A stretch of 63,572 nucleotides of DNA, counting the filler, from Collodictyon triciliatum (lineage: Eukaryota), in assembly GCA_043381765.1 (NCBI GenBank). It is 13 parts of 13 records of this genome, joined end to end, with 100 filler letters (N's around TTAATTAATTAA, not from the genome) between each part and the next. Parts side by side here need not be neighbours in the genome. Positions count along the whole stretch, not along the records: positions 1 to 5,072 come from JBHJMP010005516.1; 12 more parts are not named here. One strand, written 5' to 3'. Below the pieces are notes generated by a model, which was not told the origin of the DNA, searched no databases, and saw only the letters and a list, made by a program, of their open reading frames with translations. A program made the translations under genes and the position numbers. How positions within the stretch are numbered: the stretch's first letter is position 1; the number at the start of each line of letters is the position of its first letter. Of the stretch, positions 170-2,402 are shown piece by piece.

Positions 170-2034
170 TCTTAAGTCAGTAAACCCAGGCTATCAAGAT
201 GTGAAAACATCTCTAAAGTCGATTGTAAAGAATACGGATGACTATGACAAAATCGATGACACGGTTTTATTGTGTCATAACTTGGTTACCGATACTTATC
301 TGTTTGCAAGATGTTACATATTGAAATCACAAAACCCACAACAATCGATGAAATGGTTTTTTTTTGTACGCTTTAAAGACAGTTGGAATAGTTTCACAAG
401 ATAGACTCGCAAATTTAATAAAAACCAGATATGAGGGATGGCATGATGACTTTTTATCTATGATTTTCGATTCCTTTTGTCCCAAGAAGAACGCTTTCCG
501 TTGGTTGGACTGTCTTATCTATTACCGTACTTGGCGAAGCAAATGTTAACAGCTTATCATAATAACATTAAGGAGCATTTTGTAAAGAGGTTACTGCGCT
601 TTACAAATCAAACAGTTCCTGAAGATGAGAATATGACGGAAGCTGTTAAAAAGGCAGAGTTACGAAAGTTAAAAAAGCCGTCTTCAAGAAATTCGAAATA
701 TCGGAATAATATAAAGAATGGGCTATAACGCATTTGCATCGTATCATTCCCAGCAATATTGTAAATGGTATCGAATATGAAGGCAAAGTTAATCCAAATA
801 AGTATATTCCATGTCTGATTTACATGAATCGCATTTTCGAGGACATTTGAGCCAAACTGTTTCAGACAATCTCTATAAGAACGAACAATATACCATGTCA
901 TATTAATCTAGATACTGCATCTTTGATAAATATATTATTATTATCTGGAAAAACATTATAACTGAAGAATATATCAGGATGCAAAGAGACACTATGGGAT
1001 AAGTTCTTTGAAATAAAGAAGGGCGTCTTTCATCAAAGAGATAATAATTTTAAATACATGATACAAACAAACAGCTTGGCGGTGTCTTTATTGTTTGAAA
1101 AGAAAGGTATTTCAAATTCAAAATTCCAATTTAAACAAAACACCAAAGAATATGTTTATATAGATGAACTTTCCGAAGAGCATTTATCTTATTCAGCGAC
1201 AAAATAAATTGTTGGAGTGGACGCAGGAAAGTTTAATTTGGTTTACATGGTGGGTGAGACAGGTAAGAAATTACGTTACATGGCACAACAAAGAAGACAT
1301 GATAGCAAATCTCTTTAAAATCATAAAATATTCTTGCGCGAGAAAAATAAAGTACAATGCTTCAGGGATATGTATGGCAATAGGTTTAAAAAGTGATGTT
1401 TCTTTTGGTGCCATGACTTTTGAAGAGAATCAGCGGTTTGAAGTATCAAGAGCATCTTTAATCGATTTAGGGACAGAACTGTGTAAACATAATTCATGCA
1501 CGGTCGATTATGAACAATATCGAAAAGATGTATCTATGAAATCAAGATACCAGTAGAATTTTCTAGATTTTATGAACGAGTAACATTTCGAAAGGATGAG
1601 ATGAAGACAGTATGTTCATACAAAAGGAAGTGAACAGTTGTTTATGGACCGAATCGAAAAGGCGTTTGGCAAGGATGTTGTACTGGCGTATGGAGGCTGG
1701 AGTAGAAAATGTCCAATGTACCATTTTATTGCAACAATCAGAAGAGGATTACGAAAAATACTACCCAAGCGTTTTGAAGCAGTGTAGATGAATTTAGAAC
1801 ACCCAAGGTGTGTTGTAACTTCGAAAAAGAACTGGAATATATGAAACCGAAAGGAAATACAAAAAAAAAAGAAAAAAAAAAGAAGTATATATGTCTCATG
1901 AGTAAAGAATGCAATCTCTCAGAGAGCAAACAAAGTGTATTATTGATGAAGGGACTTTAACAGCACTAATAATATACTCAACAAAGTTATTTCAATTCTT
2001 CAAAAAAATGCACACACCTTCCTTTAGAAAATAG
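170..2034 (+). pseudogene. Fanzor1 (TnpB-like RuvC nuclease), frameshifted/stop-disrupted copy 1
   Basis: Fragments across frames: N-terminal VKTSLKSIVK..LVTDTYLF; RuvC-I IVGVDAGKFNLVYMV (~1208-1250); LGTELCKHNSCTVDYE; FGKDVVLAYGGWS (~1665-1705); VDEFRTPKVCCNFEKEL (~1785-1835); RuvC-III RDFNSTNNI (~1950-1976); probable stop TAG 2032-2034. Collinear with copy 2. Confidence 0.85.
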
Positions 2035-2038
2035 ACTG

Positions 2039-2151
2039 TTGGGTCTTTCCTGGCAGGCTTCACCACTACACAATCTTTGTGAAAAAAGTGGTGAGACCTT
2101 GGATACTGGCGGACCAGGTTAACCAATCGAAAGATGGTATACCCCTTCTAG
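2039..2151 (+). ncRNA. Putative Fanzor omegaRNA scaffold / element right end (copy 1)
   Basis: Non-coding, immediately after the stop. 7 substitutions plus one 3-nt indel versus copy 2 over ~114 nt. Nested stems GGTCT/AGACC, TCACCACT/AGTGGTGA, CACAA/TTGTG, CTGG/CCAG and ACCAATC-GAAA-GATGGT. Homology stops at CTAG|T. Confidence 0.7.
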
Positions 2152-2402
2152 TTAATGTAGATAAAGCCGCACAACCCTATCTGTCCAATTCAATTTTTAC
2201 TATGGGTAACTGCTTTTTCGGCCCTTGTTCGGGTTATACTCAAGTAATGCACCACACCAGAATAGCAATAATAACAAAAACAGTAATAGAAATAATAATT
2301 ATAGACCCGATGATGATAGATATGATAATAGCCTTCATAGTAAATGTATATAGACTATTGTCAAGAGAAAGAAGCATGTGCATATTAACAGACTAAGAAT
2401 TT

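Follow-up and report, generated by a model that had tools for sequence, protein, structure and literature searches.

The 63,572-nucleotide stretch of Collodictyon triciliatum DNA analyzed here in full (the window, 63.6 kb; assembly GCA_043381765.1) contains two related segments of about 2.0 kb, and the question they raise is what these segments, copies A and B, once encoded and whether anything of it still works. Very probably they are two decayed copies of a mobile unit of ~2.0 kb that once carried a single Fanzor1 gene. Fanzors are transposon-borne relatives of bacterial TnpB and CRISPR-Cas12. No other RNA-guided DNA nucleases are, to our knowledge, known from eukaryotes, and Fanzors are under development as compact genome editors. 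An earlier sequence-only reading of the window had placed a Fanzor1 element at 170 to 2172 and a collinear second copy at 36744 to 38751, and had described both as broken.

A blastn self-comparison of the window reproduced these spans, with a difference of no more than about 30 nt at the 3′ end. The collinearity was equally borne out. The copies formed the sole repeat pair in the window, 174 to 2142 on the plus strand against 38715 to 36750 on the minus strand, with 85.46% identity over 1,995 columns including 55 gap positions (reciprocal row, 168 to 2139 and 38721 to 36753). The window consists of about twelve pieces of ~5.1 kb joined by runs of N, and the copies lie on different pieces with N runs between them. 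No long open frame is present in either. The homology begins ~30 nt inside the open reading frame (ORF) of copy B (ATG at 38749 to 38751, homology from ~38721) and ends at 2142 to 2150 in copy A and 36750 to 36742 in copy B, a few codons from the apparent end of the frame, and the flanks differ beyond. Because the boundary lies so close to the frame end, the shared unit is essentially the gene alone. The coordinates of all features are collected in Table 1.

Family membership was analyzed from fragments of the copies outward. The REC-region fragment of copy B was 61% identical to P0001, a 331-aa NCBI protein fragment, and also matched two intact 635-aa metagenomic proteins at 39% identity. In tblastn of the window with the intact 635-aa relative P0002, the stop-free fragments lined up in order over its residues 13 to 589, solely at copies A and B, and P0002 alone matched the solved Fanzor1 proteins SpuFz1, GtFz1, and PaFz1 at E values of 7.9e-29 to 8.8e-27. 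When the RuvC-I fragment of copy B was searched exhaustively with HMMER, 62 cluster representatives were returned at E ≤ 0.001, many of them short fragments; the nearest (84 to 291 aa) shared 47 to 77% identity, and the full-length relatives (591 to 887 aa) at most 44 to 48% over the matched stretch. Eight relatives carried only the source name "hypothetical protein" in the cluster look-up. Pfam found nothing at E ≤ 0.1 on the intact relatives P0001 to P0003, although the database lists PF26935 for them, a model apparently missing from the Pfam set that was searched, and a search of the Protein Atlas with P0001 gave no usable match.

The profile A1, composed of P0002 and 13 of 14 full-length matches (the 887-aa P0054 was omitted), represents 14 intact relatives of 591 to 758 aa. 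Against the PDB it matched just three sequences at E ≤ 0.01, all of them solved Fanzor1 structures and nearly over their full length: SpuFz1 (5.2e-84), PaFz1 (8.5e-81), and GtFz1 (1.8e-64). The alignment with SpuFz1 (PDB 8GKH) spans profile positions 4 to 602. With the matches limited to Fanzor1, no Fanzor2, TnpB, or Cas12 chain was reached at that threshold. In the opposite direction, a hidden Markov model (HMM) of the A1 alignment matched 16 of the 1,917 six-frame stop-to-stop pieces of the window (E 9.3e-29 to 3.2e-7), and all 16 lie within copies A and B, in collinear order across profile positions 1 to 593. This match is far beyond chance. By sequence comparison, the two copies are therefore Fanzor1 gene relics and a fairly divergent member of a known family type; the earlier Fanzor1 assignment holds along the path from window fragments to profile A1 and from there solely to the three Fanzor1 proteins of the PDB.

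The motifs of the nuclease site named earlier (GVDAGK, GxWS, DEFRT, a zinc-finger region, and RDFN) were all found in copy A where they had been placed, in shifting frames. In the alignment of the 14 relatives, the invariant Asp/Glu/Asp columns are D372/E530/D580 of P0002. By hand count in the profile-to-structure alignment, they fall on positions 777/935/1000 of chain 8gkh_P which, less a 394-residue fusion tag (offset also hand-counted), would be D383/E541/D606 of SpuFz1. These three residues are described as coordinating the scissile phosphate and Mg2+ (PMC11423790). The columns coincide with the SpuFz1 catalytic residues, in line with the catalytic role predicted for them from the sequence. 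The relocated Glu stands in the DE..TSK motif right before the zinc finger, and GxWS occupies the strand end that holds the Glu in canonical TnpB. The proposed relocation was confirmed in both copies, with VDEFRT and VNEFRT directly preceding the Cys pairs and GxWS at the canonical site; a rearranged RuvC site with a relocated glutamate is described for Fanzors (PMC10530073). In the zinc finger of copy A, the first pair reads CCNF, its second Cys being replaced, and the second pair is spaced C-5-C. All three catalytic codons are intact in both copies but stand in different frames, so no single translation holds all three.

The extent of decay was determined by frameshift-aware protein-to-DNA alignment with P0002. 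Copy A showed 7 frameshifts and 7 in-frame stops at 36.8% identity (565 aligned codons, residues 3 to 589), and in copy B the numbers were 8 and 5, respectively, at 37.7% identity (565 aligned codons, residues 1 to 588). Both are collinear with P0002 over these residues, and the counts were similar with P0019, P0020, and P0001. Between about 1300 and 1600, the counts for copy A vary with the reference protein; judged from the indels between the copies, its true number of frameshifts is nearer ten. With about 7 to 10 frameshifts and at least 5 in-frame stops each, both copies are broken, as had been described. Most stops are private to one copy and are single-base differences (TAA versus CAA, TGA versus GGA, TAA versus TTA, and TGA versus CGA). 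A TAA at 1581 of copy A was rejected as a shared stop, the correct frame of copy A being, in our reading, another one there. The protein match runs on across the breaks with no DNA inserted relative to the protein, and the breaks are therefore not introns.

The copies differ at 262 of 1,965 aligned sites (162 transitions and 100 transversions), a Kimura two-parameter distance of 0.148. The ratio of nonsynonymous to synonymous divergence (dN/dS, Nei-Gojobori) between them was 0.64 to 0.76 in the true frame and 0.57 to 0.76 in the two wrong frames. As the true frame behaved like these controls, there is no sign of protein selection since the copies split. Among the C/T differences between the copies, 29 of 57 precede A, and a mutation bias resembling repeat-induced point mutation is suggestive at most.

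A functional gene whose breaks are really introns, programmed frameshifts, or assembly errors could be imagined here, given that Fanzor genes in some eukaryotes are described as having gained introns (PMC10530073), that 9 to 10 consecutive T surround the first shared frameshift, and that the assembly looks fragmentary. The likelihood of such a gene is practically negligible against the private breaks, the stops arising by single-base differences from the other copy, the continuous protein match without inserted DNA, and a dN/dS equal to that of the wrong-frame controls. Both copies are dead, neutrally decaying pseudogenes, and neither is able to make the protein.

Not all of the breaks are private. 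Three frameshifts are common to both copies. Their place and net shift agree, and the DNA alignment of A and B has no net out-of-frame indel there. Between the first two, both copies encode a segment beginning FFLYALKTVG in the shifted frame, which matches P0001 there. On account of the three shared frameshifts, A and B probably descend from an ancestor that was already broken, the unit having been copied afterwards. A progenitor in that state would have been copied passively, either mobilized in trans or duplicated by other means, and its two descendants would then have drifted apart neutrally by about 15%.

The wider family was analyzed in public sequencing runs. In run X4, from a named organism, 359 contigs matched positions 1 to 2600 of the window at ≥ 80% likeness and were spread over the gene; positions 2176 to 2600 had no contig cover and were not used as evidence. 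By likeness, 25 contigs fell at 99% or above, 66 at 95 to 99%, 130 at 90 to 95%, and 138 below 90%. Up to 19 different contigs covered a single site and shared a letter that differs from copy A, for example T at 960, where copy A has a private TAA stop. Three metagenome runs gave 34, 14, and 91 contigs. The stretch was poorly represented in public runs, with word shares of 0.05 to 0.09 in four of them. Many diverged variants of the family of copies A and B thus exist in at least one named organism, which supports indirectly the earlier inference of a high-copy family.

In IMG/VR (stretches L001 to L080), a Fanzor1 clade of about 600 to 635 aa was very abundant on giant-virus metagenome bins, and some bins held more than one Fanzor1 copy, e.g., GVMAG-M-3300023184-165 and -155. 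Intact relatives of the P0002 type were confirmed on at least 540 IMG/VR stretches, at 60 to 82% identity to P0002.

That intact relatives of the profile are so common on giant-virus bins, with many on GVMAG contigs of up to 267 kb, would fit an endogenous viral element as their origin, in which copies A and B are what is left of a giant-virus fragment that integrated with its Fanzor1 gene, and not a cellular transposon family. We regard this origin as very improbable. The copies are about 37% identical to the viral-contig clade, and an IMG/VR scan with the REC piece of the window returned a single weak match of 28 residues, so that the lineage has no close viral counterpart in that scan. The homology between the copies is confined to the gene itself, the flanks hold no viral domains, one flank carries a fragment of a eukaryotic-type kinase, and the run of the named organism holds many diverged variants of the family. 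The window is AT-rich (mostly 30 to 45% G+C), and Pfam matches on its long frames elsewhere (HLH, hSac2, zf-RVT, and a Tyr/Ser-Thr-type kinase fragment) mark it as eukaryotic genome.

Several results weigh against decayed copies of a mobile Fanzor1 unit as the explanation, or against single steps of it. The copies are linked to the solved structures transitively: searched by itself, the 128-aa RuvC-I piece of the window gave no PDB match at E ≤ 10, and Pfam on 18 stop-free pieces gave sub-threshold matches only, OrfB_IS605 (E 0.0046) and Cas12f1-like_TNB (E 0.003), below the curated cut-offs. The 13 relatives added to A1 had been chosen by similarity to the RuvC-I piece, which makes the RuvC-I match partly circular; the N-terminal, REC, and TNB matches are not. 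The step to a broken ancestor rests on three indel positions, and gene conversion between the copies could mimic it. Most X4 contigs have two extra letters after position 459 relative to copy A, so the wider family is not all broken alike there. No terminal inverted repeats were detected: when the 5′ flank was compared with the 3′ end, 240 of 300 shuffles did as well as or better than the best inverted match. No transposase Pfam domain occurs in 41 ORF pieces of the flanks, and the predicted RNA folds of the 3′ tails are not significant (z −1.0 and −1.4). With no such repeats, transposase, or significant fold, mobility and the omegaRNA are argued by analogy only. The same scan of the flanks found no TnpA-like gene nearby, and Rfam had no match in the whole window. 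In copy B and its flanks, 46 inverted-repeat pairs were listed; the one touching the 3′ boundary, 36735 to 36756 against 39351 to 39372 (22 nt, 77%), was no better than chance in shuffles and was rejected.

By analogy with characterized systems, an intact Fanzor1 protein would bind an omegaRNA that is transcribed from the element's own 3′ end. The RNA has a variable 3′ extension, and DNA that pairs with this extension would be cut beside a short motif. The cut would be made at the RuvC site formed by the Asp of DxGK, the relocated Glu of DE..TSK before the zinc finger, and the Asp of RD.N. In copies A and B, the omegaRNA would correspondingly be encoded at the 3′ end of the unit. For SpuFz1, the right end is described as encoding an omegaRNA scaffold of 75 nt and, after it, a variable guide of 14 to 15 nt, and the omegaRNA of GtFz1 as overlapping its last 17 codons; the same source describes some Fanzor loci as lacking inverted repeats or an associated transposase (PMC10432273).

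The protein gene could be dead and its 3′ ends still serve as "ghost-like" guide-RNA donors for an intact Fanzor1 elsewhere in the genome. Spizellomyces punctatus is described with 134 ghost loci whose omegaRNAs work with SpuFz1 (PMC10432273). In copies A and B, identity reaches 90% over the 100 aligned columns next to the homology boundary, which are among the best kept, compared with 71 to 78% in the three preceding alignment windows, and the two tails are predicted to fold alike. Donor function is nevertheless unlikely, given fold z-scores short of significance, several coding windows that also reach 90% identity, and a tail that in our reading still looks coding, with an EK.GE.LD motif like the C-terminal tails of the relatives. 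Somewhat less doubtful, but still unlikely, is the broader proposal that the source organism has a large, partly active Fanzor1 family of its own, with intact members elsewhere and dead copies that supply guide RNAs from their 3′ ends, and that this lineage is less than 50% identical to any full-length protein among 1.84 billion cluster representatives.

The closest characterized system is SpuFz1 of the Spu-1 family in S. punctatus (PDB 8GKH; PMC10432273, PMC11423790), the best PDB match of the family profile. It shares the D/E/D columns and the GxWS strand end that replaces the canonical RuvC-II Glu. Like the unit reported here, Spu-1 is described as a locus of ~2 kb with a single ORF and as a multicopy family with partial genes among its members (19 of the 42 loci are full length; PMC10432273). 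In contrast to the window, where both copies are broken, the Spu-1 copies are given as ~82% identical in protein and many as intact. Spu-1 is also described with 30-nt inverted repeats and with its omegaRNA scaffold after the stop codon, whereas in copies A and B no inverted repeats were found and the frame seems to run nearly to the homology boundary, with no separate 3′ noncoding stretch.

The giant-virus Fanzor1 clade (P0002 cluster; L001 to L080) supplied the nearest intact full-length proteins returned. It is collinear with the copies over residues 1 to 589 and has the same motifs, but is intact on viral contigs, while the copies are dead and lie in AT-rich eukaryotic DNA. The nonautonomous Fanzor1-only elements of fungi and SfAV are similar in that, in the published descriptions, Fanzor1 alone is encoded and a transposase of their own is lacking (Bao and Jurka 2013, PMC3627910; PMC10711439). 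Those elements are described with terminal inverted repeats and target-site duplications (TSDs), MuDR-like TSDs of 9 bp and, in SfAV, short ones. None could be shown for copies A and B, in part for want of a second 5′ flank, since that of copy A is lost. With the prokaryotic ancestors, ISDra2 TnpB and Cas12f, the family has in common the RuvC-zinc-finger core and the RNA-guided mechanism known from them, echoed in the weak OrfB_IS605 and Cas12f1-like TNB matches; it differs from them in the relocated Glu and in a protein about 150 residues longer.

The literature describes Fanzor1 families, comprising full as well as partial copies, from fungi, protists, animals, and giant viruses (PMC3627910, PMC10530073, PMC10432273), which makes copies A and B an ordinary find of a known type. 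They are not a working nuclease, and the family is already catalogued by the thousand, with 3,655 unique sequences reported in 22,497 assemblies (PMC10530073). The high importance first attached to the locus was therefore overstated for what are neutrally decaying pseudogenes of a catalogued family. Being dead and without recognizable ends, the two loci add little alone. Their main use is as an annotation flag for a repeat family that gene callers miss or fragment, and as a lead in the search for intact members in the full genome; any further interest would come from the rest of that genome. A divergent, many-copy Fanzor1 lineage might yield new orthologues, and it could inform how elements without a transposase of their own spread.

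Table 1. Coordinates of copies A and B, their motifs and breaks, and the simple repeats at piece boundaries; motif and active-site assignments are predicted from alignment.
Feature	Position	Strand	Remark
Copy A, Fanzor1 pseudogene, ~2.0 kb	168..2142	+	5′ end lost in microsatellite at piece start
Copy B, Fanzor1 pseudogene, ~2.0 kb	36750..38751	−	Start codon kept, 38749-38751; about 7-8 frameshifts
Copy A RuvC-I, GVDAGK	1214..1231	+	Asp codon 1220-1222, equivalent to SpuFz1 D383
Copy A YGGWS	1689..1703	+	Aligns with SpuFz1 MGDWS, strand end where canonical TnpB has RuvC-II Glu
Copy A VDEFRT	1784..1801	+	Relocated catalytic Glu codon, equivalent to SpuFz1 E541; zinc-finger remnant next
Copy A zinc-finger Cys codons	1811, 1814, 1892, 1910	+	Motif reading
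Copy A RuvC-III, RDFN	1950..1961	+	Asp equivalent to SpuFz1 D606; other frame than preceding segment
Copy B RuvC-I, SVDTGK	37652..37669	−	Motif reading
Copy B YGNWS	37181..37195	−	Aligns with SpuFz1 GDWS
Copy B VNEFRT	37080..37097	−	Relocated Glu codon
Copy B zinc-finger CxxC pairs, CHNC and CIIC	37059-37070, 36992-37003	−	After VNEFRT; both pairs kept
Copy B RuvC-III, RDFN	36935..36946	−	Motif reading
Copy A in-frame stops	707, 848, 959, 1205, 1602	+	At least 5
Copy B in-frame stops	37369, 37327, 37324, 37276, 37234	−	5
Shared frameshift 1, net +1	A~351 / B~38535	+/−	In run of 9-10 T
Shared frameshift 2, net −1	A~427-461 / B~38410	+/−	Frameshift-aware and A/B DNA alignment
Shared frameshift 3, −1	A~1777 / B~37113	+/−	Frameshift-aware and A/B DNA alignment
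Copy A 3′ tail, candidate omegaRNA scaffold region	2035..2150	+	By analogy with SpuFz1 and GtFz1
Copy B 3′ tail, candidate omegaRNA region	36745..36860	−	Counterpart of copy A tail
12-nt tandem repeat, 14.3 copies	1..169		Stands in place of copy A first codons and upstream region
Piece boundaries in simple repeats, examples	1-169, 5173-5259, 10120-10244, 15285-15416, 25656-25753		
Piece boundaries in simple repeats, further examples	30684-30915, 41184-41243, 46314-46404, 61764-61884, 63452-63572		

A microsatellite or homopolymer stands at the start or end of nearly every ~5.1-kb piece of the window. Since most piece ends are simple-sequence repeats, each piece would seem to be a contig of its own, from a short-read assembly broken at such repeats. 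Close to copy A, 260 nt downstream, a 157-codon frame (2406 to 2876, minus strand) contains a long Asp/Glu repeat and gave only a weak, low-complexity match to DNA_pol_phi. The kinase fragment near copy B, the C-terminal part of a Tyr/Ser-Thr-type protein kinase (40955 to 41242, minus strand; E 7.3e-12), lies 2.2 kb upstream of it and is cut by the piece end.

Farther away, a 370-codon frame at 16178 to 17287 (minus strand) with a zf-RVT domain, the zinc-binding region of reverse transcriptases, is probably a remnant of a non-LTR retrotransposon. A frame of 1,172 codons without a stop at 51981 to 55499 (plus strand) matched no Pfam family at E ≤ 1e-5. An uninterrupted frame of 674 codons at 18615 to 20639 (plus strand) encodes CitMHS transporter and TrkA_C domains. 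At 56% G+C, compared with 30 to 45% elsewhere, the stretch that contains it is the sole G+C-rich one in the window. The frame is compositionally foreign to its neighbors, and a contig from a contaminant or symbiont, or gene transfer, could account for it.

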